Source of the DNA: Candidatus Magasanikbacteria bacterium CG_4_10_14_0_2_um_filter_33_14
GTDB lineage: Bacteria; Patescibacteriota; Patescibacteriia; Magasanikbacterales; UBA922
Reading direction: 5' to 3'
NCBI GenBank assembly: GCA_002793035.1
Contig: PFPL01000045.1
Location: 9,669 to 73,668 of the forward strand
DNA length: 64,000 nucleotides
In this document: positions 6,413 to 51,372 of the stretch, piece by piece
Numbering within the stretch: the stretch's first letter is position 1
Layout: each line of letters opens with the position of its first letter
Translations under genes and position numbers: made by a program
The notes under the pieces: generated by a model
Database searches by the model: none
Seen by the model: only the letters and a program-made list of their open reading frames with translations
Told to the model about the DNA's origin: nothing

Positions 6413-6470
6413 GAGGTACCGGCGAGAATCGCCCCGCCCTTCGCGAAGGGCGGGGGTTGCAGACTCTGCT
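6413..6470 (-). repeat. partial duplicate of the tRNA-Cys 3' end (T-arm/acceptor) fused to a perfect 24-bp GC palindrome
   Basis: AGGTACCGGCGAGAATCG (18 bp) repeats the 3' end of the adjacent tRNA-Cys. It is followed by CCCCGCCCTTCGCGAAGGGCGGGG (a perfect palindrome). No 5' acceptor complement is present, so it is not a functional tRNA. Confidence 0.5.
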
Positions 6471-6487: not shown

Positions 6488-6562
6488 TGGAGGTACCGGC
6501 GAGAATCGAACTCACGAATAGAGGTTTTGCAGACCCCTGCCTTACCGCTTGGCTACGGTACC
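6488..6562 (-). tRNA. tRNA-Cys (GCA)
   Basis: Manual cloverleaf: acceptor GGTACCG/CGGTACC, D-arm GCC/GGC, anticodon loop CTGCAAA (GCA), T-arm GTGAG-TTCGATT-CTCGC, discriminator T, CCA encoded. Confidence 0.85.
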
Positions 6563-6827
6563 ATAATATTTTTTACCCAGCTATGATAACACAAAATCTT
6601 TTTAATTTCAATAGTTTACAATTTGTAAAGATAATCTTAACAAAAAGTTATATACATGTTATAGTATGCTGTTCCGTTTTATACGGATAAGTACATTACA
6701 AAAGATAGTTTTAGTGGAGTTTTTTGTCGGTAGGGGATTTTTGTTTCTTTTTTTAAGATATAGAAATCCCCATTCCGACAGGATAATTCTGTTCGGATTT
6801 TACTTTCCAGGGGGAAAGGAGTTTGCC

Positions 6828-7889
6828 GTGATTCTCAATTTCCGTTTCTTGAGCACTCTCGTGCTCATGGCGTTCTTCGTCCTCGTCTCGGCTTGCCGAT
6901 CGGGTGAAGAGGATACTTTCAACAAAGAACTGCTGAGCAACTCGGCTACGGTCGTCAAGCAGCCAAAACCTCAGTGGGGAGGCGCCAAGGAAGACCGCGA
7001 CCAGTGGGGTGAGAGCTCCAAGCCGGAGATGGTTGAGTGCCCTCTCGACCACAATAACCGGTTCAATAAACATTGGGATATGGTGTCCTCTGACACTTGT
7101 CTGGCGCGTGTTCGTCATTCTTCCCCCTCCTACCTCAAGCTACAGCAGGAGAACGACGAGCGTGTCAAGTTGGAGGCACAGCAGAAGACTCATGAAGAGC
7201 ATGAGAAGGCTCGTCGCATCGAAGAAAGGAAGGTGCTCGTAGAGCGTCTCAAGACTTGCTTCGACAAGGAAGATAGTCGTCCTCAGTGGCGACAGGATGT
7301 CGAGTTTGGACTTCGTGCCAAGGACGTTCTTCTCGAGGTGCAGTACGACGACTACGTCGACAGCAAGGTCTATCCCTGCTATGACGACGCGAGGCTCTGC
7401 GTCAAGGATGTCGAGGGCTGTGAGCTCGTCGAGCAGTCCAAGAAGTACAACCTCGAGCGAGACAAGAACTTCGTCGCGCTTATTTGGAAGATTCTCAACT
7501 CCAAGGAGGAGATCGCTCCCCGACAGTTCTGTTGGGATGGATGCTCGGTCTTCTCGCGTGGTGATCTCGCTCGTAAGACGATGGTTGTCATGGAGAAGTA
7601 CGGGTGGACGCCTGAGGACTTCGGCTCCAAGACCGATGACTTCGTGGTGGCCATCAAGAAGAGTTATCAAGAGGCCTTCAAGTTCGCCACCCAGGACATT
7701 GAAGTCGTCTTCAAATGCAAAAAGGACGACCAGGAGGGAGTATTCCTCGACGAGGATTGTCAGTTTCTCGAAACTGAGCAATCCGATGTTTTGTCGGCTC
7801 TCTGTGACGAGTTCTTGAGAACGGCTTCCTTTGCTGGGCTGACCTCTGAGCAGATCAGCAAGCTCCATTGTGAGGGTTTTGACGAGTAG
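6828..7889 (+). CDS. GC-rich, cysteine-rich, acidic putative lipoprotein (compositionally foreign)
   Basis: GTG start preceded by GGGGAAAGGAG; signal peptide ending in lipobox LVSAC; about 14 Cys; coiled-coil segment. GC content clearly far above the flanks by eye (codons ctc/gtc/gac/aag). The overlapping ORFs on the other strand and frame are GC-rich artefacts. Confidence 0.55.
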   Translation: MILNFRFLSTLVLMAFFVLVSACRSGEEDTFNKELLSNSATVVKQPKPQWGGAKEDRDQWGESSKPEMVECPLDHNNRFNKHWDMVSSDTCLARVRHSSPSYLKLQQENDERVKLEAQQKTHEEHEKARRIEERKVLVERLKTCFDKEDSRPQWRQDVEFGLRAKDVLLEVQYDDYVDSKVYPCYDDARLCVKDVEGCELVEQSKKYNLERDKNFVALIWKILNSKEEIAPRQFCWDGCSVFSRGDLARKTMVVMEKYGWTPEDFGSKTDDFVVAIKKSYQEAFKFATQDIEVVFKCKKDDQEGVFLDEDCQFLETEQSDVLSALCDEFLRTASFAGLTSEQISKLHCEGFDE

Positions 7890-20891: not shown

Positions 20892-20932
20892 TTGTCCACA
20901 AAAGCGAAGAGTTTTCCACAGCTTTATCCACA
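20892..20932 (+). promoter_or_regulatory. cluster of three co-oriented DnaA boxes
   Basis: TTGTCCACA (20892-20900), TTTTCCACA (20913-20921), TTATCCACA (20924-20932, perfect consensus); a fourth TTGTCCACA lies at 21224-21232. Confidence 0.45.
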
Positions 20933-20933
20933 A

Positions 20934-20953
20934 TGTATAGGATAATCTATACA
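20934..20953. repeat. dyad motif copy 2
   Basis: tgtataggataatctataca, abutting the perfect DnaA box. Confidence 0.5.
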
Positions 20954-21079
20954 AAAACTAGTTTTCACTTGTGAAAAAACAGTGGATTTGTTGTGACTTG
21001 TTGTATTTTCAAATAGCTTGATCTATGTTTTTTGTGTGTAATACATCTTTTTATTGTTGTTCCCTAAGATTATGTACAA

Positions 21080-21099
21080 TGTATAGGAAAGTCTATACA
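21080..21099. repeat. dyad motif copy 3
   Basis: tgtataggaaagtctataca. Confidence 0.5.
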
Positions 21100-21234
21100 A
21101 ATATCAATATTCATTATGTTTGGGATTATTTTTTAAAAAATATTTGTATTCTCCAAAAAAGATAGATAAAATTTTTCATAAAATTTGACTGTTATACACA
21201 GTTTTTGAGTCTTTTCCCCAGTATTGTCCACATT

Positions 21235-21254: not shown

Positions 21255-21385
21255 AATTATATAAAAACATTAACTTATAAAAAAAAACACCAATAAATTG
21301 GTGGGTTTGTAATATTGAATAGTATGTTGTGCAGGTTCCCGCGTCTTCCCTCCTTGTTTTAAGAGTTGACGCGGGTTACCTTGTT

Positions 21386-21864
21386 TTATCCCAAGTAGAG
21401 ACCTCTCTTTTTGAGCTTCTCCAGAGTGGTCCAGCCCTGCTTGAAGGCTCTCTGGGTAAACACCTGCCCTAAGCGTTTCAGCTTGTCGGTATATGGGGTC
21501 CAAGTAGAGCAGCGAACCCTTTCCTCTTCGTTGACACCACGCATGATGTCGAAACTATTGAGGGGTGGGCGTAGAGGTTGAGCAGGATGGTCTCGCCATC
21601 TGCTTTGTTTTCGGGGAGGTGGCCGTGTTCGAAGTAGTCGAGGGCTTCCTCTCAGGTGAGCCACTTTTTCTCCAGTCCGTGCAAGAACCAGCTGATCTGG
21701 TTTGTGCCGAGACGTTGGAAGCTCGGCATGATTTGCCGGAGATCTTCAAGAATTCTCTTGAGGATCTGGAAATCCTCACTAGAAATATTCTCGAGATCAG
21801 AGATCAGCTGCTCGCAGTCTCGCAAGGTGCAAGCCAGCTGTTGATATGTCCTGTCAATTGGCAA
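21386..21864 (-). pseudogene. third gene of the GC-rich islet operon, interrupted by an in-frame TGA and a frameshift
   Basis: TTG start 6 nt after GGAGGA. The 70-aa ORF ends at TGA (21652-21654); same-frame read-through gives a plausible RKPLDYFEHGHLPENKADGETILLNLYAHP. A second frame continues as ...EEERVRCSTWTPYTDKLKRLGQVFTQRAFKQGWTTLEKLKKRGLYLG to 21386. Confidence 0.4.
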
Positions 21865-21866
21865 TT

Positions 21867-22130
21867 TCAGTCCTCCTGGTTGCAGTTGCCTTTGCAGCAG
21901 CAGTTATCTCTTGGGTCGCACTTGTTGCATTTGGAACAGTGCCGGTAATGACAATGTTCACATTTGCAGGTGAAGCGTTCGTCGATGATAGCTCGACAGT
22001 AGAAGCAGGTTGTGAAGTACCATCTCTTTCCACAATTGGGACAAAGACGAGCAGGATAGCCGTCTTTTGTTTCGTCCGATGTGGAAATGTGTCCGCATTC
22101 GCAGACGTATTCGTTGGTCTGTCTGTTCAA
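21867..22130 (-). CDS. cysteine-rich zinc-ribbon-like small protein, paralog 2 (novel family)
   Basis: 87 aa, 17 Cys. Shares with the upstream paralog the pattern CxCG-x9/10-GxPARxC-x2-CxKxWYxTTCFxC-x4-DER-...-CDP-x3-CxCxGxC. GC-rich codon usage. Confidence 0.6.
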   Translation of the reverse strand: MNRQTNEYVCECGHISTSDETKDGYPARLCPNCGKRWYFTTCFYCRAIIDERFTCKCEHCHYRHCSKCNKCDPRDNCCCKGNCNQED

Positions 22131-22249
22131 ATTTGTTTCTCCTTTGTAAGTGGACTTATTTTAAGTATAGCTAGGGAAATTGTTAAATGTCAATTTTTTT
22201 TATAAACAATGAAGCCCTCTTGTATTTCACAAGTGGGCTTTATCATTGA

Positions 22250-22519
22250 TCAGCAGGACCCTTCGCAGGTGCATTCACCTGAAGGATCACAGCTTCCGCA
22301 AGTGGGGCAGTGGAGGTTTTTGCAGACATTACAGACCTTGTTGAGACGTTCGTCTAGATGAGTGTCACAGAGAAAACAGGTAGTATAGTACCAAATTTTC
22401 TCGCAACTAAGACAGCGCCTGGCAGGATTACCATGCTTGTAGTCAGCCGTGGTGTATCCTCCACAGTCGCAAATATTTTTTGGATCAATCTTTTTTGCAG
22501 GACCTTCTCTAACACGCAT
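22250..22519 (-). CDS. cysteine-rich zinc-ribbon-like small protein, paralog 1 (novel family)
   Basis: 89 aa, 16 Cys; RBS AAGGAG 6 nt upstream of ATG; first gene of the minus-strand operon. Confidence 0.6.
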   Translation of the reverse strand: MRVREGPAKKIDPKNICDCGGYTTADYKHGNPARRCLSCEKIWYYTTCFLCDTHLDERLNKVCNVCKNLHCPTCGSCDPSGECTCEGSC

Positions 22520-35555: not shown

Positions 35556-35715
35556 AAAATTTTTTTAGATATTGTAATTATAACATATTTTTTGTAATTA
35601 GGTAACTAGGTCGTAGGTGTGAAAAATAAAACAGAGATACAATTTATATAAAAGGGAGATAATAAAAAAACTAGCTTATGAGCTAGTAGATATTTTTTAA
35701 ATTGTGTGTACCTCT

Positions 35716-35758
35716 CCGTCCCGATCGAATTGACTTCGATCGGGACGGATTGGGGTGG
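35716..35758. repeat. GC-rich hairpin repeat, copy 1
   Basis: CCGTCCCGATCGAA-ttgac-TTCGATCGGGACGG followed by attgGGGTGG; near-identical to the copy at 38309-38346. Confidence 0.55.
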
Positions 35759-36313
35759 TGCGTTCACTTGGGTTCGTCACTATCCTTTTGAGACAGTTTC
35801 TGAAACTCCTCTAATTTCTTTTCCAGTTTCTTGATTCTCTTATTGTCTAGCATTCCTCCTATTCCCAGGAAGATGACAGCTAGCTCGAGTAAGATATGTG
35901 TGAGGGTGTCTGGCACTTTTTACCTTTGCACCCGGGGGGACGTGGGAATCCGGGCGACAGCTGAATTTAGCACATTATTATTATGTCAAGAATTAGAGGT
36001 GAATTTATGGAGTGAAAAAGGTCTGTTTGATTAGTTTCAAAGCTCTTTAAATAAGGCAAACTGACGTTTGCCACTCCTAATTTTTCAAAAAATCTTATTA
36101 ATTAATAAACAAATTAACGAAAAAACCTAAGTTTAGACCTTTTCCTTGACAATTTAGGTCTTTTTTGTTATAGTGTTTTCACCTTTGGTGTTTTGTAAAA
36201 CTTAAAAAATAAGTGTTTTATTTTGAACTTGTTAATAGAAGCTAAAATGTCGAATTTAGCCAAAATTAGCCTTAAAAAAAGACAACATAAAACTTGCAAA
36301 ACAAAAAAAAATT

Positions 36314-36904
36314 ATGAAATATTACGAAATGTTGTGTGTCCTTCCAGGGACAATGACTGAAGAAGAGGTTAAATCTGATGTAGATTTGGTCTCTCAAAGT
36401 GTCGCTAAGTATGAAGCTAGCGATGTTACTATAGAGGATATGGGGAAAAGTCGTTTGGCTTATCCTATAAAACATATTCGCTATGGTTATTTCCAATTGT
36501 ATAGATTCAATTTGGAAGAAGAAAATATCACAAAATTGGAAAAAGAATTACGCCTAATGGACAAAATGTTGCGTATTACTGTTTCTGTTTGTGATCCTAG
36601 TAACACTGTTAGTTATAAATTAGCTTTAGATCCTACTGCTCCTAGTGCTCCACCAAAAGCTGACAAGGAAGACAGACCTAGAACTAATAGAACAAACAGA
36701 ACAGAAGAAAAGAAGGAAGAAAAAACTTCTGATGAGGTAAAAGAAACTGTAGAAGAAAAGAAGGAAGAAGTGAAAGAAGAAGTCGTTGTTGAAAAGACAG
36801 TTGAAAAACCTGTAGAAGAAAAATCTGAAAAAACAAAAATGAGTGTGGAAGATATTGATAAAAAATTGGACGAAATCTTGCAAGATGATATAGATAAGGT
36901 ATAA
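36314..36904 (+). CDS. rpsF: 30S ribosomal protein S6 with long K/E-rich C-terminal extension
   Basis: MKYYEMLCVLPG...; approx 100 aa core plus approx 95 aa charged tail. Confidence 0.85.
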   Translation: MKYYEMLCVLPGTMTEEEVKSDVDLVSQSVAKYEASDVTIEDMGKSRLAYPIKHIRYGYFQLYRFNLEEENITKLEKELRLMDKMLRITVSVCDPSNTVSYKLALDPTAPSAPPKADKEDRPRTNRTNRTEEKKEEKTSDEVKETVEEKKEEVKEEVVVEKTVEKPVEEKSEKTKMSVEDIDKKLDEILQDDIDKV

Positions 36905-36947
36905 AATAATATTATAGTTAAATTTACTTATCTTTAATTAAAAAAAT

Positions 36948-37388
36948 ATGGACCTAAACAGAGCAACCATTATCGGACGTCTTACCCGAGATCCAGAAGT
37001 AAAGACTACTCCTTCTGGACAAACTGTCGCTAATCTTAGCGCCGCTACCAATCGTGTTTGGACTGATAAATCAGGTGTCAAACAAGAAAAAGTAGAATTC
37101 CATAACATAGTTATTTGGGGAAAGCTAGCTGAAATAGCTGGTCAGTATCTAAGTAAAGGACGTCAAGTTTATCTTGAAGGACGTCTTGAAACTCGTGATT
37201 GGACAGGACAAGATGGTGTCAAAAAATATCGTACAGAGATTGTTGCCGATAATATGATTATGCTTGGTGGTAATAATTCTGGTGCTGGTAAAGGTTCTTT
37301 TGGAAATGATACTTCTGTTTCTAATGACAACACTGATCAAAGTAGTTCAGACAGTGATGAAATCAAAGTAGAAGATATTCCATTCTAA
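36948..37388 (+). CDS. ssb: single-stranded DNA-binding protein
   Basis: OB-fold; acidic C-terminal DIPF tip. Confidence 0.85.
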
Positions 37389-37401
37389 GACAATTGTTAT
37401 T

Positions 37402-37635
37402 ATGATTAGAAATAATAATCAAACACAAAAAAAAGAAAAACAATGTTTCTTTTGTGTCAATAAAGACAAACATATTGATTACAAAGACAATGAAACTTTG
37501 CGCAGATTTACATCTTCATATATGAAGATCCAACCTCGTAGACGTAGTGGTCTTTGTGCCAAACATCAACGTCAAGTAGCGAAAGCTATCAAGCAAGCTC
37601 GTATTGCTGGACTTCTAGCTTTTGTTCCTAAATAA
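37402..37635 (+). CDS. rpsR: 30S ribosomal protein S18
   Basis: CFFC...[27 protein letters not shown]. Confidence 0.85.
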
Positions 37636-37922
37636 GACACTGATTACACTGATTAGTGAAAGATTACACAGATTATAAAAAACTCTCGAGAATTCGGGAG
37701 TTTTTTGTTTTGAAAAAATTTAATGTTATGGAGTGACAAGTAAAAGCTTGTCACTTATGCACTAGACAAGCTGTCACTTGTCATTTCTTTTTTTGTGGGA
37801 TGGCGGGAAGCGAGCGAGGATTAGCTTGTTGACATTTTTGGTAGATTATGTTAATTTCAAATGTCCTTTTGGACTGTGTTGCCATGAGGTGACATATTAC
37901 ATAAGTTGAAAAAGGGGATAAA

Positions 37923-38291
37923 ATGTCAGAAAATGCAAAAGTAAGTTGGGTAATATTTTTTATTTTTACCATTGGCTTTGGGTCTGGAGGTATTTTCGAT
38001 AACTGTGTGGTACACAGCGAAAACTGCTTCACGGCCAAGGAGGCCAAGGCTTGTGACATCTTCACGCTCGATGGTAAGACTGTCTACACCGTCAGCTGGC
38101 CCTACCCGGAGGATAAGGAGCACAAGTACTGCTCCGTGCCTGACATCATGGTCAGGTGCAAGGGACCTTCTGGAGAGCCGGCCTGTTTTGAGAAGGTGAT
38201 GATAAACGACGATGTCTACAACTTTCCGGAGTGGGGCATCTGCCCTGCAACACCGCCAGCTCCGAAGGCTGAGGCGGAGCCTGGAAGCTGA
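37923..38291 (+). CDS. small secreted/membrane-anchored Cys-rich protein with a GC-rich mature domain
   Basis: 122 aa. AT-rich N-terminal hydrophobic segment (VSWVIFFIFTIGFGSGG) followed by a GC-rich region with 8 Cys. Terminated by hairpin repeat copy 2. Confidence 0.5.
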   Translation: MSENAKVSWVIFFIFTIGFGSGGIFDNCVVHSENCFTAKEAKACDIFTLDGKTVYTVSWPYPEDKEHKYCSVPDIMVRCKGPSGEPACFEKVMINDDVYNFPEWGICPATPPAPKAEAEPGS

Positions 38292-38308
38292 CAACACGCG
38301 CTGCCAAA

Positions 38309-38346
38309 CCGTCCCTTTCGAATTATATTCGATCGGGACGGGGTGG
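38309..38346. repeat. GC-rich hairpin repeat, copy 2
   Basis: CCGTCCCTTTCGAA-ttata-TTCGATCGGGACGG-GGTGG. Confidence 0.55.
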
Positions 38347-38466
38347 CTCATCAAAATATTTTTGAAAATATAAGTTAGTTTAAAAACTAATTTTTTTATT
38401 TAACTATTTTTCCAAAATAAGGTATAATACACAAGAATAAAAATAATGCTTCAAATTTTTTTAGTT

Positions 38467-43708: not shown

Positions 43709-44440
43709 ATGAAGTTTGGAATTTATAAAATATTTGGAATATTGGTGTTTGTTTTTGTTATATCTTTTTTTAAGATTGATTTGGTTTTTTCTGAAAGTAA
43801 ATATTGTAAGTGTACTTCAGACAAAGGTGTTTGCGAAGAAGGGGCAAAGTTAAAAAGTGATTGTGATAAGATGGTACAAGATTCAAATGGTCAATTTACT
43901 CAATGTGTAATGACAACTACTGATAAAAATTGTTCTGCTCTTGCTACGTCTAGAAAATTCTGTGCTTGTGCTGCTGACAAAAGCGATTGTGGTCCTACTA
44001 TTTATGCTGACTTACCAGAATGTGATAGGAACAAAGGTGCTGTCAATGCTAGTTACCAATGTATTCAAGTTGAAAATGGAAAAGGCTGTAGTTCACTTGT
44101 GGATGCTACCCAAAATGGTGATCAATCTGGTAGTAGTCAAGGAGGTTCAGCTTCTAGCTTTCTAGGTGATTTGGACCCACAAATAAAAGGATTAAATAAA
44201 TTACAAGGTGTAGATAATTTACAACAACTGATTGGTCGTGCCATTTCTGCTCTCTTGGGTATTTTGGGTTCTATAGCTTTGGTTATGATGCTTTTTGGTG
44301 GATTTACTTGGATGACTTCTGCTGGTAATGTTGAAAAAAGGAAAAAAGCTACAGGTATTATAATTTGGTCTGTGTTGGGCGTGTCTATCATTTTTGCTAG
44401 TTACGCTATGGTTAATTTTGTTTTGGATATCTTTAAATAA
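43709..44440 (+). CDS. VirB2/TrbC-like (T4SS-pilin-like) two-TM protein with N-terminal Cys-rich ectodomain
   Basis: Signal peptide, about 10 Cys, then LFGGFTWMTSAGNVEKRKKATGII + second TM (family core). Confidence 0.5.
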   Translation: MKFGIYKIFGILVFVFVISFFKIDLVFSESKYCKCTSDKGVCEEGAKLKSDCDKMVQDSNGQFTQCVMTTTDKNCSALATSRKFCACAADKSDCGPTIYADLPECDRNKGAVNASYQCIQVENGKGCSSLVDATQNGDQSGSSQGGSASSFLGDLDPQIKGLNKLQGVDNLQQLIGRAISALLGILGSIALVMMLFGGFTWMTSAGNVEKRKKATGIIIWSVLGVSIIFASYAMVNFVLDIFK

Positions 44441-44445
44441 ATATT

Positions 44446-45825
44446 ATGTTTAAAAAAATTTCAGTGCTCTCTCTTCTTTCTATATTTTTGTTGACAGCTG
44501 GGTTTGGTTGTAAGAGTGTTTCACAAACTGAGCAAGCATCTATTAAGGCGGTTAAGCTTACTTATTGGACTGTGTATAATGATGTGGATGAGTTACGTGT
44601 TTTGGCACAACAATATACACAGCGTTATCCACATGTGTCTATCAATATAAAACAAGTAAAATATGAGGAATTTGATAGTTTGTTTACCAATGCTTTGGCT
44701 GATGATGTTGGTCCAGATATTGTTTCTCAGCACGTGAGGTGGCTTCGTAAAAATCAATCTAGATTATTACCAGCACCTGGAGTAACAAAGATGCATCGTA
44801 TTGTAATTGCCAATAATTTTTCAAAAGAACAACAATTTTTGACAGATTCCAATGCTTTGCCTTCTGCTAGTTATATAAAAAATAATTATGTTCAAACTGT
44901 TTATAATGATGTTGTGCTCGACAAACAAATTTATGGTTTGCCTTTGTCTATGGATACTCTTTCTATTTTTTATAATCAGGATTTACTTGATAGAGCAGGT
45001 ATTGCCGAAGCCCCAAAAAATTGGAATGCTTTTGCTGAAGATGTCCAAAAACTTACTAAGTTCAATAGTATTGGAGATATCATCCAATCTGGTGCAGCTC
45101 TTGGTACTGCCAATAATATCAATGCCGCTACAGATATCATTGCTATGTTTATTATGCAAAGTGGACTAAAAGTAGCTAGTGGTAATACAGTTACTTTTGC
45201 GGCAGGTATAGACAAAGCTCAAGATAGAAATGTATCTATTTTGAGTGCTCTTGATTTTTATACTGATTTTGCTAGACCTACCAAAGAAGTTTATAGTTGG
45301 AATGAAAAGAAAGGTGATGCCTTAGATGAATTTGTTCGTGGTAGAGTAGGTTTTTATTTTGGTTATTCTTATGATTTTGCAACTATAAAACAAAGATCTC
45401 CTCAAATGAATTTACGTATTATGCCAATGCTACAGCTTGATCCAGAAAATCCAAGCAATGTAGCTAATTATTGGGTGGAGTCAGTCGTCCAAAAAACAAA
45501 ATATCCAAATGAAGCTTGGGATTTTGTAAGGTTTATTACTTCTCCAGAAAATGTAGCCAAGTATACAGAAAAGATTTTTAGTCCAAGTCCAATTCGTGCA
45601 CAAATCACACTTCAACAGGAAGATGAAAATCTTGGACCTTTTGCTACGCAAGCTTTATTTGCTGAAAATTGGTACAAAGGTAAAGATGTGGATGCTGTCG
45701 CTACTTCTTTTGATTCTATGATTACAGAACTTTTGAAACCATCTGATGATGAAAATGATTTATTGAAAAAAGATAAGCAAATCATTATTAATACCGCTGC
45801 CAGAATTCAGCAGACAATGCAATAA
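44446..45825 (+). CDS. orphan extracellular solute-binding lipoprotein (SBP family 1-like)
   Basis: Lipobox LTAGFGC; MalE-like sugar SBP blocks; no adjacent permease or ATPase. Confidence 0.65.
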   Translation: MFKKISVLSLLSIFLLTAGFGCKSVSQTEQASIKAVKLTYWTVYNDVDELRVLAQQYTQRYPHVSINIKQVKYEEFDSLFTNALADDVGPDIVSQHVRWLRKNQSRLLPAPGVTKMHRIVIANNFSKEQQFLTDSNALPSASYIKNNYVQTVYNDVVLDKQIYGLPLSMDTLSIFYNQDLLDRAGIAEAPKNWNAFAEDVQKLTKFNSIGDIIQSGAALGTANNINAATDIIAMFIMQSGLKVASGNTVTFAAGIDKAQDRNVSILSALDFYTDFARPTKEVYSWNEKKGDALDEFVRGRVGFYFGYSYDFATIKQRSPQMNLRIMPMLQLDPENPSNVANYWVESVVQKTKYPNEAWDFVRFITSPENVAKYTEKIFSPSPIRAQITLQQEDENLGPFATQALFAENWYKGKDVDAVATSFDSMITELLKPSDDENDLLKKDKQIIINTAARIQQTMQ

Positions 45826-45828
45826 TAT

Positions 45829-47112
45829 ATGAAAAATTTTTATAAAATTTTATTTTTTACAGTAATATTGTTTGCTTCATTATTTTCTTTGCAGAGTACT
45901 GTTTTAGCAGCTGGTCCTGTAGATGATTTTTTTTCTTCCGTAGACAAAGGTTTGAATTATCAGTGTTGCCTGTTGAAAAGGTCAAATGATCAGACTGTAG
46001 CTTGTGTAAAAAATCATACAGTAGGGGGTGGTTCAAGAATAGGTTGTTATGAAAATTATTCTGATCCTGAAACTGTAAATGCTAGGATTCAAGAAATGTA
46101 TTATAGTGGTGATACTTTGTATGATTTTAGGACTCAAAATATAACAAAGTTAGAGAATGTCGACTGTAATGCTATTGCTGCTTGTGTAGAGTTTTCAGAT
46201 CAAGAAAAAATGTTTTCAGGTACAATAAGTAAAAGTGATTTTGATTTAATTAATATAGCTACTTTCAATGTCAAAGTATCAAAAATGTTGCCTGTTACTG
46301 ATTATAATTTTAGTAAATTAGAATGTATCAATTGTAATATCACGCCAGGATTAAAAGCTACTAGTGGTAGTTTTTCTATATCAAATAGTAATTTGAGTGT
46401 ACATGAACTAACTATGAATTTTGAGTTGACGCCTTACGAGTATATAAAGGGGAGTCAAGACAAAAAGTTGCCAGCTACTGTTAATTTAGAATTTAAGGCT
46501 AGTGGAAAAACATCTGAGGGTAAAGATCTTACAACTTTTTTAAAATTTCCTTTGATTATAAAAGGAGCCAACTGTAAAGATTTTGATAATGATGAAGCAA
46601 AATGTTCTACCAATAGTGGCTGTCTGTTTGTTTCTGCAACCAAAAAATGTGGAGAAGTCGCCGATGCTTCTCTATGTAGTGTCTTGAACAAAAATGAGTG
46701 TGCCGTTTCTATAGCTTGTACACAGGATGCTAACGAAAAGTGTGTAAGCAATGTTTCCAAAGCTGTAGATGAATATATTGCCAAGGATCATCAAATGCCT
46801 AAAGGTTATTCAGGGCCTTTACCTGAGTGTGCTTTTGATGGCTCTTGTCGTGATGTAAACAAGTTGGTAGAGCTAGCGCTAAAAGTAGTTGATTATTTGT
46901 TTTCTATTGTAGCTGGTTTAGCTTTCGTTTTCTTTATTTATGGAGGATTTACTTGGATATTTTCTTTTGGAAATCCCGAAAAAGTAAAAAAAGGTCAACA
47001 GATTTTTGTCTATGCTGTGATTGGTCTTATCATTGTATTTAGTGCTTATATATTGGTTAGTTTCTTGCTCAATGTTTTGGGTGTGAATGATGCATATATA
47101 ATTATAAATTAA
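45829..47112 (+). CDS. VirB2/TrbC-like two-TM protein with large N-terminal Cys-rich ectodomain
   Basis: Signal peptide, approx 330-aa Cys-rich region, then IYGGFTWIFSFGNPEKVKKGQQI + TM. Confidence 0.5.
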   Translation: MKNFYKILFFTVILFASLFSLQSTVLAAGPVDDFFSSVDKGLNYQCCLLKRSNDQTVACVKNHTVGGGSRIGCYENYSDPETVNARIQEMYYSGDTLYDFRTQNITKLENVDCNAIAACVEFSDQEKMFSGTISKSDFDLINIATFNVKVSKMLPVTDYNFSKLECINCNITPGLKATSGSFSISNSNLSVHELTMNFELTPYEYIKGSQDKKLPATVNLEFKASGKTSEGKDLTTFLKFPLIIKGANCKDFDNDEAKCSTNSGCLFVSATKKCGEVADASLCSVLNKNECAVSIACTQDANEKCVSNVSKAVDEYIAKDHQMPKGYSGPLPECAFDGSCRDVNKLVELALKVVDYLFSIVAGLAFVFFIYGGFTWIFSFGNPEKVKKGQQIFVYAVIGLIIVFSAYILVSFLLNVLGVNDAYIIIN

Positions 47113-47119
47113 AAAAATT

Positions 47120-47482
47120 ATGAAAATATCTTTTAAGAGTTCATTTTTTCTTATAATGTCTGTGGCTTTATCATTTTTTGTTTATAATTTGGTACAGGCT
47201 GTGAATTGTGAGGACAATAGAACTTGTCTAGAAAACCCCATAAAAAGTAATACTATTCCGGAAATTTTTGGTAATGGAATTAAGATATCTACTGGTATTA
47301 TGGGTTCACTTGCGTTGTTAGTTTTTATTTATGGTGGGGCTGTTTGGCTTACTTCTGCAGGCAATCCAGAAAAAGTAAAGAAAGGTACGAGTGCTATGGT
47401 TTGGGCTGTGTTGGGTATGGTTGTTATTTTTAGTAGTTATGCTATAATTAACCTAGTTTTGAATGGGTTGGGAGTAAATTAA
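47120..47482 (+). CDS. VirB2/TrbC-like small two-TM protein (paralog)
   Basis: IYGGAVWLTSAGNPEKVKKGTSA. Confidence 0.55.
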   Translation: MKISFKSSFFLIMSVALSFFVYNLVQAVNCEDNRTCLENPIKSNTIPEIFGNGIKISTGIMGSLALLVFIYGGAVWLTSAGNPEKVKKGTSAMVWAVLGMVVIFSSYAIINLVLNGLGVN

Positions 47483-47633
47483 AACATTGATTGCACGGAT
47501 TTAATAAGATTACACTGATATTTACTTAGTAAGAATATAATTACGATAAATAAGTTATAAAATACTTACAATATTTTTTAAAAAAATATAATTATGTTAA
47601 AAAAAACTTTTGCATTGAAGGGAGGTGATACAC

Positions 47634-48083
47634 ATGAATTTGTTATATAAGCTTGCTAAATACAAAACAGTTCTTTCAATTATTTTTGTATTAGCTTTAG
47701 GACTTGTGCTATCACCAAATTTGGCTATGGGTCAAGGTTATGATCCAAATGATCCATTCGGCGTTGACGTCGTTGAACAAGGTGATGGTTCAGAGGGAGG
47801 CGGACTTGCTCTAGGTACTTCAGATTTGAGAGCTACTATCGTTAGAGTAATCAATATCGCTTTGAGTTTACTTGGTATCGTAGCTGTTGTCGTCGTACTT
47901 ATCGGTGGTTTCCAATGGATGACTGCTGGTGGTGATGACGGTAAAGTAGAAACAGCTCGTAAATGGATTTTCTCAGGTATTATTGGTCTTGCTATTATTC
48001 TTAGTGCTTGGGCTATCGCTAGATTTGCTCTTGTCAATCTTGGTAACGCTACCAACACTCCTGGTGCTGAAAATTATCAATAA
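47634..48083 (+). CDS. VirB2/TrbC-like small two-TM protein (paralog)
   Basis: GGGAGGTG RBS then ATG; LIGGFQWMTAGGDDGKVETARKWI. Confidence 0.55.
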   Translation: MNLLYKLAKYKTVLSIIFVLALGLVLSPNLAMGQGYDPNDPFGVDVVEQGDGSEGGGLALGTSDLRATIVRVINIALSLLGIVAVVVVLIGGFQWMTAGGDDGKVETARKWIFSGIIGLAIILSAWAIARFALVNLGNATNTPGAENYQ

Positions 48084-48205
48084 ATTTAAATTTCAGAGCA
48101 GATATTTGCAAAAATATTCTGCTCTGAATATTTATTTTGAGAGGATAAAAAATTATTTTTCACAAAAATTTTTGGAAAATCATCTTTTATTCTTTATAAA
48201 ACATT

Positions 48206-48634
48206 ATGATAAACAAAAAGTTAATTAATTTAGTTTTTGTTTTTTTATTTGCTTTCGCTGTCTTGGTACCAGCTAGTGCACCAACTTTGGCAGCGCCTAG
48301 TTCTACTTGTGATCAAGAAGGGGATTTATTGGGTCTTGGTTGTGTAGGAAGTAATACAGGTCTTAGTGACAAAGATCCTCGTATTATTATTGTCCAAATT
48401 ATAAATGTTATACTTGGTTTATTGGGAATCGTAGTTACTGTGCTTATTGTCTATGCTGGATTTTTGTGGATGACAGCCGGTGGTGAAGAGTCAAAAGTAG
48501 AAAAGGCAAGAAAGATTATTGTTGCAGCCATTATTGGACTTGCTATTATCTTGTCAGCTTTTGCTATTACTAGGTTTGTTTCTTTTGGTCTTTATCAAGC
48601 AACAATGGGTAGTGAATATCCTGTTGCTAAATAA
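48206..48634 (+). CDS. VirB2/TrbC-like small two-TM protein (paralog)
   Basis: VYAGFLWMTAGGEESKVEKARKII. Confidence 0.55.
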   Translation: MINKKLINLVFVFLFAFAVLVPASAPTLAAPSSTCDQEGDLLGLGCVGSNTGLSDKDPRIIIVQIINVILGLLGIVVTVLIVYAGFLWMTAGGEESKVEKARKIIVAAIIGLAIILSAFAITRFVSFGLYQATMGSEYPVAK

Positions 48635-48644
48635 TTTTGTATTT

Positions 48645-49310
48645 ATGAATAATAAAAAATTTTTTTTAACATTTGGATTCCTTACTGGTTTTTTTCTTCT
48701 GGTTATGATGTTTGCTCCAGGTTTTGCTTTTGCTGACAATTATGGTCTAGATGCAACTGCTGGAGCCGCAGGTTTGCCTAGTGGTGTAGATTTGCCAACT
48801 GTTTTGGGTAATGTGATTGGTACAGCACTTTCTATGATTTCTGTATTATTTTTTGGTCTCATGCTTTATGGTGGAATTATGTGGATGACAGCCAGGGGAA
48901 AGAGTGAAAACACTCAAAAAGCACTTGATACTATTATCGCAGCTATCATTGGTGTGGTGATTGTCTTGGCTGCTTATGCTATTACCAATTTTGTTTTTAG
49001 TAACGTTCAATCTGGAGCGGGTGGTGCAGGTGGCGGAACTGGAGGAACTGGAGGCAATAATACTCCACCTGTTTCTCAGTCATGTGTTATTGGTAATACA
49101 GAGGTTTCTAGTTTTTGTTCTACAGCATGTAATGTTGTTCAGGATGCTTGTACAGGAAATGATTACTGTCAAGATTTTTGTAAACCTAATGATACAGGTC
49201 TTCTTTGTATTCCTATGGCTTCTCAATCCTCTTTGTGTTCTGTATATTCTAATGTTATTGCAAATTGTACAGCTGTAGAGTCTGACACAGAATTGTGTAA
49301 AGTACAATAA
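48645..49310 (+). CDS. VirB2/TrbC-like two-TM protein with Gly-rich linker and C-terminal Cys-rich domain
   Basis: LYGGIMWMTARGKSENTQKALDTI; SGAGGAGGGTGGTGGNN linker; 12 Cys in the last approx 85 aa. Confidence 0.5.
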   Translation: MNNKKFFLTFGFLTGFFLLVMMFAPGFAFADNYGLDATAGAAGLPSGVDLPTVLGNVIGTALSMISVLFFGLMLYGGIMWMTARGKSENTQKALDTIIAAIIGVVIVLAAYAITNFVFSNVQSGAGGAGGGTGGTGGNNTPPVSQSCVIGNTEVSSFCSTACNVVQDACTGNDYCQDFCKPNDTGLLCIPMASQSSLCSVYSNVIANCTAVESDTELCKVQ

Positions 49311-49314
49311 ATTT

Positions 49315-49686
49315 ATGCGTAAATTTTTGGTAACAATTTTATTTGTAGGAATTAGTCTATTTTCTGTTTCCAATGTTTATGCAAAAAAAACTTTGAATGA
49401 TGCTGATAGTGCACTAGATACTGTATCTCAAAAAACAGGAATTGATCAAAAAGATTTTTCAGCTGTTACAGGAAATGTAGTGAACATGATTTTTATTTTT
49501 GTAGGGTTGATATTTTTTGCTTTGATGGTCTATGCTGGTCTCCGTTGGATGACAGCTCGTGATCAAGCCGACAAAGTAGAAAAGGCTAGAAATACGATGA
49601 TAGCCGCTGTGATAGGTCTTATAATCGTCGTAGCCGCTTATGCTATTACCAATTTCTTACAAACCAAAATTATAAATGGTGGTTAA
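49315..49686 (+). CDS. VirB2/TrbC-like small two-TM protein (paralog)
   Basis: VYAGLRWMTARDQADKVEKARNTM. Confidence 0.55.
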   Translation: MRKFLVTILFVGISLFSVSNVYAKKTLNDADSALDTVSQKTGIDQKDFSAVTGNVVNMIFIFVGLIFFALMVYAGLRWMTARDQADKVEKARNTMIAAVIGLIIVVAAYAITNFLQTKIINGG

Positions 49687-49695
49687 AATTTTCAT

Positions 49696-50067
49696 ATGAA
49701 AAAAATAAAAAATATTTTTGCAAATTTGTTTATAGCTTTTATATTGGCTTCATCTTTTACTTTGCCGGTATTTGCTCAAGGTATCAAAAATGCTGGTGAT
49801 AATCTAGATCCTATCGCTCAAAAAGCGGGGATTACTGAAGGTGATGTCGGAAATATTACGGGTACTGTTATCTCTGCTATTTTGAGTCTGGTTGGTATTA
49901 TTTTTCTAATTCTCATGGTTTACGCTGGTATTATTTGGATGACAGCCAGAGGTGATGATAGTAAGACTGAAAATGCTAAGAAAACGATTACAGCCTCAAT
50001 AATAGGTCTTTTTATAGTAGTAAGTGCTTATGCTATTACTCAATTTGTAACTAGTAGATTTAACTAA
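49696..50067 (+). CDS. VirB2/TrbC-like small two-TM protein (paralog)
   Basis: VYAGIIWMTARGDDSKTENAKKTI. Confidence 0.55.
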   Translation: MKKIKNIFANLFIAFILASSFTLPVFAQGIKNAGDNLDPIAQKAGITEGDVGNITGTVISAILSLVGIIFLILMVYAGIIWMTARGDDSKTENAKKTITASIIGLFIVVSAYAITQFVTSRFN

Positions 50068-50072
50068 ATTTT

Positions 50073-50480
50073 ATGAAATATATATTTTTTTCTTTTCTAC
50101 TTATTTTTTCTTTTGTTACTTTTGCGCCACAAGCTTTGGCTTTGGATTTGGGAGGTGACACTCTAAAAAATGCTGCTGACAAAGGTGGTTATGACAAAAA
50201 TACCAATGAAACAACTTTGGCTAGCAATATTGGTATGGTAGTGAATATTATCTTGTCTATTATTGGTGTTTTGTTCACTGTTTTGATGGTTTATGCTGGA
50301 TATACTTGGATGGTAGCTAGAGGTGATGAGACAAAGATAGATAAGGCTAAGAAAATTATTACAGCTTCTATTATTGGACTTATTATTACACTTGGAGCTT
50401 ATAGTATTACCAACTTCATTATTCCAAGAATACTTGATCAGACTCTTGCTCAAGTAAATAGTTGGTTATTATTTGTCTAA
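50073..50480 (+). CDS. VirB2/TrbC-like small two-TM protein (paralog)
   Basis: VYAGYTWMVARGDETKIDKAKKII. Confidence 0.55.
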   Translation: MKYIFFSFLLIFSFVTFAPQALALDLGGDTLKNAADKGGYDKNTNETTLASNIGMVVNIILSIIGVLFTVLMVYAGYTWMVARGDETKIDKAKKIITASIIGLIITLGAYSITNFIIPRILDQTLAQVNSWLLFV

Positions 50481-50482
50481 TT

Positions 50483-50899
50483 ATGAATAAATTCTCAAAA
50501 ATTATTTTAACTTTAATTTTTTCAGTGATAATTTTGTCTCCTTCGCTTTCTTTGGCACAGACAAATACCTCTACCAAAAGTACCAAAGACTCAGCTTTGG
50601 AACAACTTCACGCTGGCGCAAATGGAGCAGGCCTTCAAGAACAATCTAGTGATCCTAGAATTATTGCCTCTCGTATTATAAAAACATTCCTTAGTTTATT
50701 GGGTACGATGTCAATTTTCTTGTTTGTATATGCTGGATATCTACTTATAACATCACATGGTGAATCAGAAAAAGTGACAAAAGCCCGAAAGATTATGACT
50801 GGGGCAGTGATTGGTATGCTTTTGATATTACTTTCATTTAGTATTACGAATTTTGTAGGTAACAAATTGCAAGAGAGTATAAATCAGACTTCTAATTAA
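50483..50899 (+). CDS. VirB2/TrbC-like small two-TM protein (divergent paralog)
   Basis: VYAGYLLITSHGESEKVTKARKIM. Confidence 0.5.
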   Translation: MNKFSKIILTLIFSVIILSPSLSLAQTNTSTKSTKDSALEQLHAGANGAGLQEQSSDPRIIASRIIKTFLSLLGTMSIFLFVYAGYLLITSHGESEKVTKARKIMTGAVIGMLLILLSFSITNFVGNKLQESINQTSN

Positions 50900-50904
50900 T
50901 ATTT

Positions 50905-51372
50905 ATGATTAGAAAAAAAATAATTTTATTTTTGTTGGTAATCCTTGGTGTTTTCTGCTTTACAAATTTTTCTTTAGCGGTAAACTCTACTACTGAGAGT
51001 CTTATTGATTCTATAAATTCTCAGAACCAGGCTTTTGAAAATAGTTCAGAAGTGGGTGCCCCACAAGACATTAGAATAATTATAGCTAAAATTATAAAAA
51101 TATTTTTGGGTTTTGTTGGGTTTTTAGCCACTGCCTATTTGGTATATGGTGGTTATTTGTATATGACTTCTGCTGGTAATGAAACTAGAGCAGAGGATGC
51201 TAGTAAAATTATGCTGTATAGTGCTCTAGGTATCTTTATTATTTTGGCTTCTTATAGTATAACCAATTTTGTATATAAATCATTTCAAGCAAGTTTAGAA
51301 CAGACACAGACGACAGGTAGCCAAAATTCTGGTGGAACAAATTTTTCCAATGAAAATTCTTTTAGACCGTAA
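50905..51372 (+). CDS. VirB2/TrbC-like small two-TM protein (divergent paralog)
   Basis: VYGGYLYMTSAGNETRAEDASKIM. Confidence 0.5.
   Translation: MIRKKIILFLLVILGVFCFTNFSLAVNSTTESLIDSINSQNQAFENSSEVGAPQDIRIIIAKIIKIFLGFVGFLATAYLVYGGYLYMTSAGNETRAEDASKIMLYSALGIFIILASYSITNFVYKSFQASLEQTQTTGSQNSGGTNFSNENSFRP

Follow-up and report, generated by a model that had tools for sequence, protein, structure and literature searches.

Two GC-rich hairpins in a 64,000-nucleotide stretch of DNA from Candidatus Magasanikbacteria bacterium CG_4_10_14_0_2_um_filter_33_14 (contig PFPL01000045.1, positions 9,669 to 73,668; the whole stretch is called the window) are shown in this study to be the cores of a conserved module of the 3' untranslated region (UTR), which ends each member of a lineage-restricted family of gene cassettes. 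The cassettes are named by the site that they occupy: A, the spacer between pilB and rpsF; B, the position after rpsR; C1 and C2, a third site found in the strain L001. All follow one order of parts, in which an optional upstream terminator-like hairpin is succeeded by a sigma-70-type promoter (TTGACA and an AT-rich spacer), a structured 5'UTR, an open reading frame (ORF) rich in G+C at third codon positions (GC3), the 3' element and an AU-rich terminator. Two types of gene are accommodated in this frame, the one encoding single-pass membrane peptides of 43-61 amino acids (aa), the other N-terminally anchored Cys-rich proteins of 113-132 aa with a KAEAEP-like tail.

The hairpin pair

A pattern search of the 64-kb window for CCGTCCCNNTCGAA-N5-TTCGATCGGGACGG finds copy 1 at 35716-35748 and copy 2 at 38309-38341 only. 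With 0.00 matches expected from dinucleotide shuffles, the pair reported in the initial annotation of this DNA is real. The two copies are also the most stable 50-nt folds of the window (-32.1 and -29.6 kcal/mol), with RNA fold z-scores of -7.7 (copy 1) and -4.65 (copy 2). They flank rpsF (36314-36904), ssb (36948-37388) and rpsR (37402-37635) on either side, and the confirmation of the three genes by Pfam agrees with the bracketing proposed at the outset. Equally borne out is the attachment of each copy to GC-atypical sequence, the flanking GC content being 0.41 and 0.57 on one side and 0.23 on the other (window GC, 33.6%). The 2.9-kb region of the hairpins is 100% identical in four independent assemblies from European Nucleotide Archive (ENA) and Joint Genome Institute (JGI) samples, and is therefore no assembly artefact or chimera.

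Orientation is the point on which the first reading has to be revised. The copies had been placed in the same orientation; the hairpin core is palindromic, however, and therefore its own sequence gives none. The covariance model R2, built from seven copies outside the window, assigns copy 1 to the minus and copy 2 to the plus strand (each 34.4 bits, E=2e-7), and neither window copy was matched by it in the opposite sense. The two copies, 2.6 kb apart, are therefore inverted relative to each other, each lying in the sense of its own outward-facing gene. An invertible segment between the inverted hairpins was considered and rejected, the rpsF-ssb-rpsR gene order being constant in all window-type and L001-type assemblies.

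The 3' element and its family

The element of which the hairpins form the core measures ~70 nt and is laid out as CCAA, an internal loop of 2 nt, a 13-17-bp GC stem and GRRGG-YACACA. In its shared fold the outer stem has 2-4 bp, AA stands opposite GG or GA in the symmetric internal loop, the GC stem has 12-17 bp, and the terminal loop has 5-7 nt but is longer in a divergent copy at 21.3 kb. At all loci the element lies in gene sense, 10-25 nt past the stop codon, and a separate AU-rich hairpin with a U-run is found 20-40 nt downstream. All copies follow a GC3-rich small ORF, whose product is a single-pass membrane peptide in some cassettes and a Cys-rich anchored protein in the others; host genes have a median GC3 of 0.23 (range, 0.13-0.38).

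The element is carried by seven distinct loci, three in the window strain (site A, site B and the diverged copy at 21316-21391) and four in L001. It is the same 3' element that ends these seven GC3-rich small-gene loci, in support of the original idea of a repeat-associated cassette family beside core genes. L001, together with L002, represents a sister strain (the same as NCBI metagenome-assembled genome GCA_001784405.1, L180) whose backbone DNA is 91-97% identical to the window. The position-A element recurs, in one copy each, in the genomes of four related species, L008, L009, L089 and L090, whose PilB proteins are 75-80% identical to that of the window. An alignment of ten sequences has 92% of its cells paired, as compared to 31-43% with slid partners; compensatory changes occur in 8 of 13 pairs, and the covariation score is reached in none of 500 shuffles.

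The window-strain sequence surveyed amounts to ~85 kb, or ~8% of a genome of ~1 Mb. In it, R2 identifies exactly three copies, all in gene sense; the models R1 and R2 revealed no further copy in ~1.6 Mb of Magasanikbacteria loci. The scenario that the initial annotation had itself named as contradicting its proposal, hairpins abundant in the genome and unlinked to GC-rich segments, did not occur, for the three copies in 85 kb are all linked to genes. Two degenerate hairpin patterns gave 0 matches in 185,579 species genomes and IMG/VR, a result of weak weight because the window strain is not a GTDB representative. The third copy of the window strain (21316..21391, minus strand; GGU-AA-CCCGCGUC...GACGCGGG-A-ACC) was recognised from its fold and by R2 (22.9 bits, E=6e-4). 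It closes a GC-rich island at 21.3-22.5 kb and is followed by an AU-rich terminator of its own.

The GC hairpin is distinct from the terminator: no U-tract follows it, and a canonical hairpin with U7 is present downstream. That the hairpins are nothing but ordinary Rho-independent terminators duplicated by chance is highly improbable. A GC-rich stem-loop soon after the stop codon would suit this reading, but the stem is followed by GGUGGCUCAUCAAAA or AGAGGUACACACAAU in place of a U-tract, the terminator scan does not call the hairpins, and each locus has a canonical terminator of its own 25-30 nt further downstream.

Cassette A

The order pilB (minus strand) and rpsF-ssb-rpsR (plus strand) is kept throughout the phylum. 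The spacer between pilB and rpsF is elsewhere mostly 150-300 bp long and AT-rich. It is ~0.8-1 kb long and contains a GC-rich patch in the window, L001/L002, L008, L009, L089 and L090, and is also enlarged, to variable length, in several more distant genomes. In the window the patch at 35760-36010 had been described as non-coding, a description that does not stand, for it contains a minus-strand ORF of 50 aa and a 5'UTR hairpin, both kept in four related genomes. A covariance scan of the patch against Rfam, suggested at the time for a non-coding RNA, returned nothing at gathering thresholds nor at E<=10; only four tRNAs pass in the window, and the best match at 35.5-38.5 kb (E=0.29) lies outside the element. 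A non-coding RNA was consequently rejected, the patch being a small gene with its 5'UTR.

All parts of cassette A lie on the minus strand. Its promoter (35964..35989), recognised in the five-genome alignment A1, has TTGACA as the -35 box (35989..35984) and TAAATT as the -10 box (35969..35964). Upstream of it, a terminator-like hairpin GGCAAACGUCAGUUUGCC at 36055..36072 was found by terminator scan and sequence comparison and is also present in the paralogous cassette L001-C2. The structured 5'UTR (35917..35957), which contains the hairpin CCCGG-N14-CCGGG at 35931-35954, is the best-conserved block of A1, and its motif also appears in a regular-expression census. The gene for the 50-aa single-pass membrane protein (35764..35916; GTG start, GC3 0.52) rests on the ORF list and on homology in relatives, and is called in the public assembly L169. 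It encodes one transmembrane (TM) helix and then a charged KRIKKLEKKLEE tail. At the same locus L090 has a homologous ORF of 55 aa, whose peptide has KRIKKLE in common with that of the window, and the 43-61-aa ORFs of L008, L009, L089 and L001-C2 match it in architecture. The 3' element (35693..35765) was identified by pattern search, fold and R2; in RNA sense its hairpin core, copy 1, reads CC-AA-UCCGUCCCGAUCGAA-gucaa-UUCGAUCGGGACGGA-GA-GG-UACACACAAU. The AU-rich intrinsic terminator at 35663..35687 (ACUAGCUCAUAAGCUAGU then U7; terminator scan and folds) is 28 nt past the GC hairpin and orthologous in L001, L009 and L090.

At site A of L008, L009, L089 and L090 the promoter, 5'UTR, CCAAYCCG lead-in, hairpin, GAGGYACACACAWT tail and terminator can all be aligned with the window. 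The coding sequence (CDS) aligns poorly across these four genomes, yet in each it encodes a single-TM peptide of 43-55 aa. Between L008 and L009 the peptides differ by few conservative substitutions, and the synonymous differences are many. As a separate observation, the promoters of the TM-type cassettes have a (TAA)n tract in the spacer between the -35 and -10 boxes (35970-35983 in the window), which varies in steps of 3 nt. The spacer measures 14 nt in the window and L090, 17 in L009 and L089, 11 in L008 and 18-21 in L001-C2. This variation looks like promoter spacer-length switching; the tract is identical in the four assemblies of the window strain.

Cassette B and the 122-aa protein

Cassette B runs on the plus strand. 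A promoter TTGACA-17 nt-TAATTT (37829..37857), read from the sequence and kept in L001-B, is followed by a 5'UTR of the Cys type (37863..37922) in which the hairpin GTCCTTTTGGAC at 37863-37874 precedes GTGTTGCCAYGAGGYGA; sequence comparison shows it to be common to window-B, L001-A, L001-B and L001-C1. The gene (37923..38291) encodes a membrane-anchored, Cys-rich orphan protein of 122 aa with an N-terminal hydrophobic anchor, eight Cys and a KAEAEPGS tail. Comparison with its 125-aa relative P0002 gives a pN (nonsynonymous) of 0.20 and a pS (synonymous) of 0.83, and the ORF is therefore a real gene under purifying selection. The chimeric composition attributed to it earlier is evident in a GC3 of 0.2-0.3 in the first ~30 codons and mostly 0.6-0.9 later.

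The search for homologs covered 5.8 billion proteins and included an exhaustive profile search of 1.84 billion cluster representatives. It brought the homology search recommended in the initial annotation to a divided result: relatives do exist, but the family of the 122-aa protein has just three members, P0001 (98% identical), P0002 (63%) and P0003 (27%), all from this species group, and no homolog outside the lineage was found. The 122-aa protein has no Pfam, PHROG, NCBIfam, PADLOC or PDB sequence match, and these same collections returned nothing meaningful for any GC-rich ORF of the window. The AlphaFold2 model of the protein is unreliable (mean predicted local distance difference test score, 48).

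The 3'UTR element of cassette B (38292..38364; pattern search, fold z=-4.65, R2 34.4 bits) contains copy 2, whose core lies 17 nt past the stop of the 122-aa gene and is enclosed by an outer stem GCCA/UGGC (38303-38347) with an AA/GG internal loop. About 25 nt beyond the outer stem lies the AU-rich intrinsic terminator (38372..38399), a 9-bp stem then U7, recognised from its fold and kept in L001. Public gene calls often take an antisense ORF of 141 aa (37926-38354, minus strand; 7205-7630 of L168) in place of the 122-aa gene, and cassette L001-C1 (17420-17915 of L001) is absent from them. Protein databases therefore under-sample GC-rich small genes. Relative to L001, the window has a 118-bp insert at 37711-37829, between the rpsR terminator and the cassette B promoter; it comprises two GACAAG/CTTGTC hairpins and may be an insulating terminator.

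Cassette variation between strains

The sister strains differ in what the cassettes contain. At site A of L001 the small-TM gene is replaced by the 125-aa Cys-type gene P0002, inverted compared to the window copy at B. Site B of L001 holds P0003, the paralog of 27% identity, and homology to the window at this site ends ~50 nt before the start codon and returns 20 nt before the stop codon. The additional L001 cassettes C1 and C2 are located between the genes of an N6/N4 methyltransferase and a NUDIX protein, where the window has an unrelated, AT-rich ORF of 130 aa. The product of C1, 113 aa long and Cys-rich, has a lipobox-like VQGC and a tail KAEAEPN, and its gene lies behind a 5'UTR with GTCCTTCTGGAC. 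C2 codes for a single-TM peptide of 61 aa, and cassette A contains the paralogs of its promoter, 5'UTR and upstream hairpin. L008, L009, L089 and L090 have no cassette at site B, and no target-site duplication was found at site B by comparison with the empty sites of L008 and L009. Synonymous divergence (dS) between the Cys-type alleles is saturated, as opposed to a dS of 0.06-0.23 in core genes, and the alleles are therefore far older than the split of the genomes.

The stems evolve differently from their surroundings. The CCGCGTCG-type stem occurs in L001 (four loci), L008, L009, L089, L090 and the 21.3-kb copy of the window, and the CCGTCCCGATCGAA stem only in window A and window B. The immediate flanks of the window A and B stems are orthologous to the same loci elsewhere (e.g., L001-B). 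With flanks orthologous and stems different, it follows that only the stem was exchanged at these two loci. As the simplest explanation, gene conversion acting locally between the two inverted neighbours is most likely the source of the near-identical window stems. The types of CDS and stem, moreover, are combined as X+W in the window, X+L in L090 and Y+L in L009; they assort independently, which shows that recombination has occurred within cassettes.

Function, mechanism and alternatives

With moderate probability, the two hairpins are best explained as parts of a 3'UTR module that serves its cassette family both in protection of the RNA 3' end and as a boundary of exchange, a function that we infer. 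The GC stem-loop would form in the mRNA directly upstream of the true terminator and could there present a barrier or protective structure to the 3' end, in the manner of a repetitive extragenic palindrome (REP) or "retroregulator", so that the highly structured transcripts of the cassettes would be stabilised. The protective role fits because the whole cassette transcripts are strongly structured (fold z of -5.3 to -7.5). A long-range pairing of the 5' and 3' mRNA ends, as in hok, was not consistently predicted in three full-length folds. At the DNA level, the 5'UTR and the 3' module might provide the boundaries for recombinational swapping of coding segments.

Several points weigh against this explanation. 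The stabiliser role is suggested by analogy. A pure RNA stabiliser would need neither the derived stem shared by the window copies nor the conserved CCAA and GRRGG-YACACA flanks, and shared stem and flanks together hint at a sequence-specific partner or a DNA-level role. The model does not account for the high GC3 that the cassettes keep over species-level time. The covariation comes down to a small number of independent changes, in essence two types of stem with minor variants, and the survey extends to ~8% of the genome. We therefore regard the element as real and somewhat unusual, without evidence of a new mechanism.

The hairpins could alternatively be recombination sites in the DNA, attC-like or structure-specific, at which a recombinase encoded elsewhere excises, inserts or exchanges cassettes. 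We judge this unlikely. A hairpin 3' of each ORF cassette, with short conserved flanks around a variable stem, would be expected of such sites, and so would the different cassette content of the same sites in strains ~92% identical, the breakpoints that hug the cassette, and the exchange of the stem alone at two loci between orthologous flanks. However, the stems are nearly perfect, lacking the AAC/GTT core triplets and extrahelical bases of attC; the cassettes have their own promoters and terminators and are scattered rather than arrayed; and there is no target-site duplication with respect to the empty site B of L009 and L008. Among the Pfam-annotated genes within ~85 kb, no integrase or other recombinase, transposase, REP-associated tyrosine transposase (RAYT) or reverse transcriptase was found.

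Doubtful to a somewhat greater degree is a system resembling type I toxin-antitoxin pairs, with the membrane peptides as toxins and the 3' stem-loop as the pairing site of a convergent antisense RNA or as a bidirectional terminator. The ORFs of 43-61 aa with one TM helix and a charged tail, the structured 5'UTR that partly occludes the ribosome-binding site, the multi-copy, intergenic and strain-variable loci and the very stable 3' stem all have their place in it. Measured by the size expected of a small hydrophobic toxin (<~60 aa), cassette A fits (50 aa, one TM) and cassette B does not (122 aa, Cys-rich). The same element ends anchored Cys-rich proteins of 113-132 aa, which are unlike type I toxins, no convincing antisense promoter was seen, and neither an Rfam antitoxin RNA nor a Pfam or NCBIfam toxin was matched.

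We attach a similarly low likelihood to an undescribed gene-shuffling system of Candidate Phyla Radiation (CPR) bacteria, in which the 5'UTR hairpin and the 3' stem-loop would be specific recombination handles for compact modules, the size of a transcription unit, that encode small surface or secreted proteins. Transfer would proceed by an enzyme or via a transcript/cDNA intermediate; the segment transplanted into site A of L001 would extend roughly from the promoter/transcription start region to 12 nt beyond the hairpin. The high GC3 would be the trace that GC-biased gene conversion, occurring very often at these loci, has left. If true, this would give a hypervariable repertoire for the interaction with host cells.

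Recent import of the cassettes from a GC-rich foreign donor, together with their own terminator hairpins, is improbable, and the foreign origin assumed in the initial annotation is not upheld. To be sure, a GC3 of 0.45-0.9 compared to the host median, the empty site B of L008, L009, L089 and L090, the saturated dS of the alleles relative to core genes and the orphan nature of the proteins would all be accommodated by an import. Yet cassette A stays GC-rich at one locus in five lineages, the AT-rich promoter, upstream hairpin and terminator are duplicated as part of the cassette unit, the 122-aa gene begins with ~30 codons of host-like GC3, and neither a donor nor a homolog was found in any collection searched. 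Regarding a phage or plasmid origin, nothing was found by blastn against phages and plasmids or in three protein scans of viral contigs.

Very improbable are selfish palindromes of the REP/RAYT type or resembling miniature inverted-repeat transposable elements (MITEs), which would adjoin the genes by chance. Restriction to the species, extragenic position, a length of ~35 nt and conserved flanking bases are compatible with this origin, and the same derived stem in both window copies is a sign of concerted evolution. Nonetheless, the 85 kb of the window strain contain only 3 copies, and 20 kb of L001 contain 4; every one is gene-linked, with fixed sense and distance relative to the stop codon. 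No Y1 transposase is encoded within 85 kb, and terminal inverted repeats or target duplications were not observed. A MITE proper was rejected in that the units encode proteins and no duplication is seen with respect to the empty site B of L008 and L009. A diversity-generating retroelement was rejected likewise: the sequence at 37.9-38.3 kb has no second copy in the window, no reverse transcriptase is encoded within ~85 kb, and the 98% allele differs at 3 nt in a pattern unlike that of such elements.

Other GC-atypical islands and neighbouring features

The window has dnaA and dnaN at its left edge, and its PilB is 80% identical to PilB of Candidatus Magasanikbacteria metagenome-assembled genomes (CPR/Patescibacteria). 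Further islands at 21-22 kb and 6.8 kb had been assigned to the same theme as the hairpin pair. The assignment is correct in part: the island at 21-22 kb ends with an element of the family, but the hairpin at 6.8 kb is outside it. The former island (21386-22519, minus strand) contains two paralogous, CxxC-rich (zinc-ribbon-like) orphans, 87 and 89 aa long, with a separate TTGACA-17-TATACT promoter for each, and two more ORFs follow; no family, phage or defence match was found for these ORFs. Beside it, at 20892-21232, are five DnaA-box-like sites on one strand, among them one perfect TTATCCACA; this cluster is ~20 kb from dnaA-dnaN. The 6.8-kb island encodes a lineage-restricted, Cys-rich protein of 407 aa (6666-7889, plus strand; GC 0.51, GC3 0.65), whose only relatives in 5.8 billion proteins are P0004 (92%) and P0005 (44%). 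The island shares the theme of GC-rich, orphan, Cys-rich genes, with a 3' hairpin of different sequence that R1 and R2 miss.

After tRNA-Cys (6488-6562, minus strand), a partial tRNA-Cys-like copy at 6414-6470, extending from the anticodon loop to the 3' end, includes the hairpin CCCCGCCCTTCGCGAAGGGCGGGG. This is a second repeated type of GC hairpin, as another one almost identical to it occurs 10 kb upstream of the window (2322-2347 of L172), after another small TM ORF. The same upstream region has two islands of 56% GC (2720-3653 and 5367-6225 of L172) with unannotated ORFs, on whose strand the gene callers disagree. GC-atypical islands occur about every 10-15 kb in the genome of the window strain. 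At 43709-51372, after type IV pilus genes, ~12 paralogous T4SS_pilin (PF18895) genes are arranged in tandem, the run being broken only by one gene for a solute-binding protein.

Biological meaning and relation to known systems

Our study has importance in describing a family of small orphan proteins, largely overlooked by public gene callers, whose content differs between near-identical strains. The regulatory RNA frame of the cassettes is better conserved than the coding sequence within it, and the covariance model of the 3' element offers a handle by which genes for strain-variable small proteins can be found in Magasanikbacteria. The prevailing view is that CPR bacteria live attached to other cells; about the variable proteins that they secrete or carry on the surface, little is known. 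The cassettes also provide a natural case for asking why few genes keep a GC3 of 0.5-0.9 in a genome of GC3 0.23. A search of the full-text literature found nothing relevant. The closest known systems are the following.

With type I toxin-antitoxin loci of the Fst/Ldr kind, the cassettes share small single-TM peptides with a charged tail, structured UTRs and strain-variable, multi-copy intergenic loci. They differ in that no antisense RNA is evident, the UTR modules serve larger Cys-rich proteins as well, and there is no sequence match. With integrons, they share the short ORF followed by an imperfect palindrome in which structure is kept over sequence, the conserved boxes flanking a variable stem as in attC, and a cassette content that varies between strains. 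Unlike attC, the element has no RYYYAAC/GTTRRRY cores; its flanks are GCCAAAC...GGGTGGC at B and CCCCAAU...GAGAGGU at A, the 3' side lacks GTT, and the AA/GG positions are mismatched. Unlike integron cassettes, those described here stand singly between core genes, each with its own promoter and terminator, and no intI is present within ~85 kb.

In Neisseria, pilE/pilS with the 3' Sma/Cla repeat exemplify variable surface-protein loci framed by recombination sequences. The hypervariable CDS between a conserved 5' region and a 3' repeat, the several paralogous loci and alleles older than the strains are points of similarity. Each of the present cassettes has its own promoter, however, with no hierarchy of silent and expressed copies, and no ongoing conversion is evident within the population, the four assemblies being identical.

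The REP palindromes (or bacterial interspersed mosaic elements, BIMEs) are exemplified as stabilisers of the mRNA 3' end by malE-malF of E. coli, and the "positive retroregulator" of the Bacillus thuringiensis cry gene is a 3' stem-loop. The present element is distinguished from REP/BIME by its low copy number (3 in 85 kb), its confinement to a single cassette family and always to gene sense, its non-palindromic flanks CCAA...GRRGG-YACACA, its compositionally atypical neighbour genes and the lack of a RAYT within ~85 kb. What it has in common with REP/BIME and the cry retroregulator alike is a stable, lineage-specific palindromic stem-loop of the 3'UTR distinct from the terminator and, with REP/BIME, repetition at several genes along with some sequence homogenisation among the copies. 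It is thus a lineage-specific element that builds on known themes, namely palindromic 3'UTR stem-loops and variable small-protein loci.

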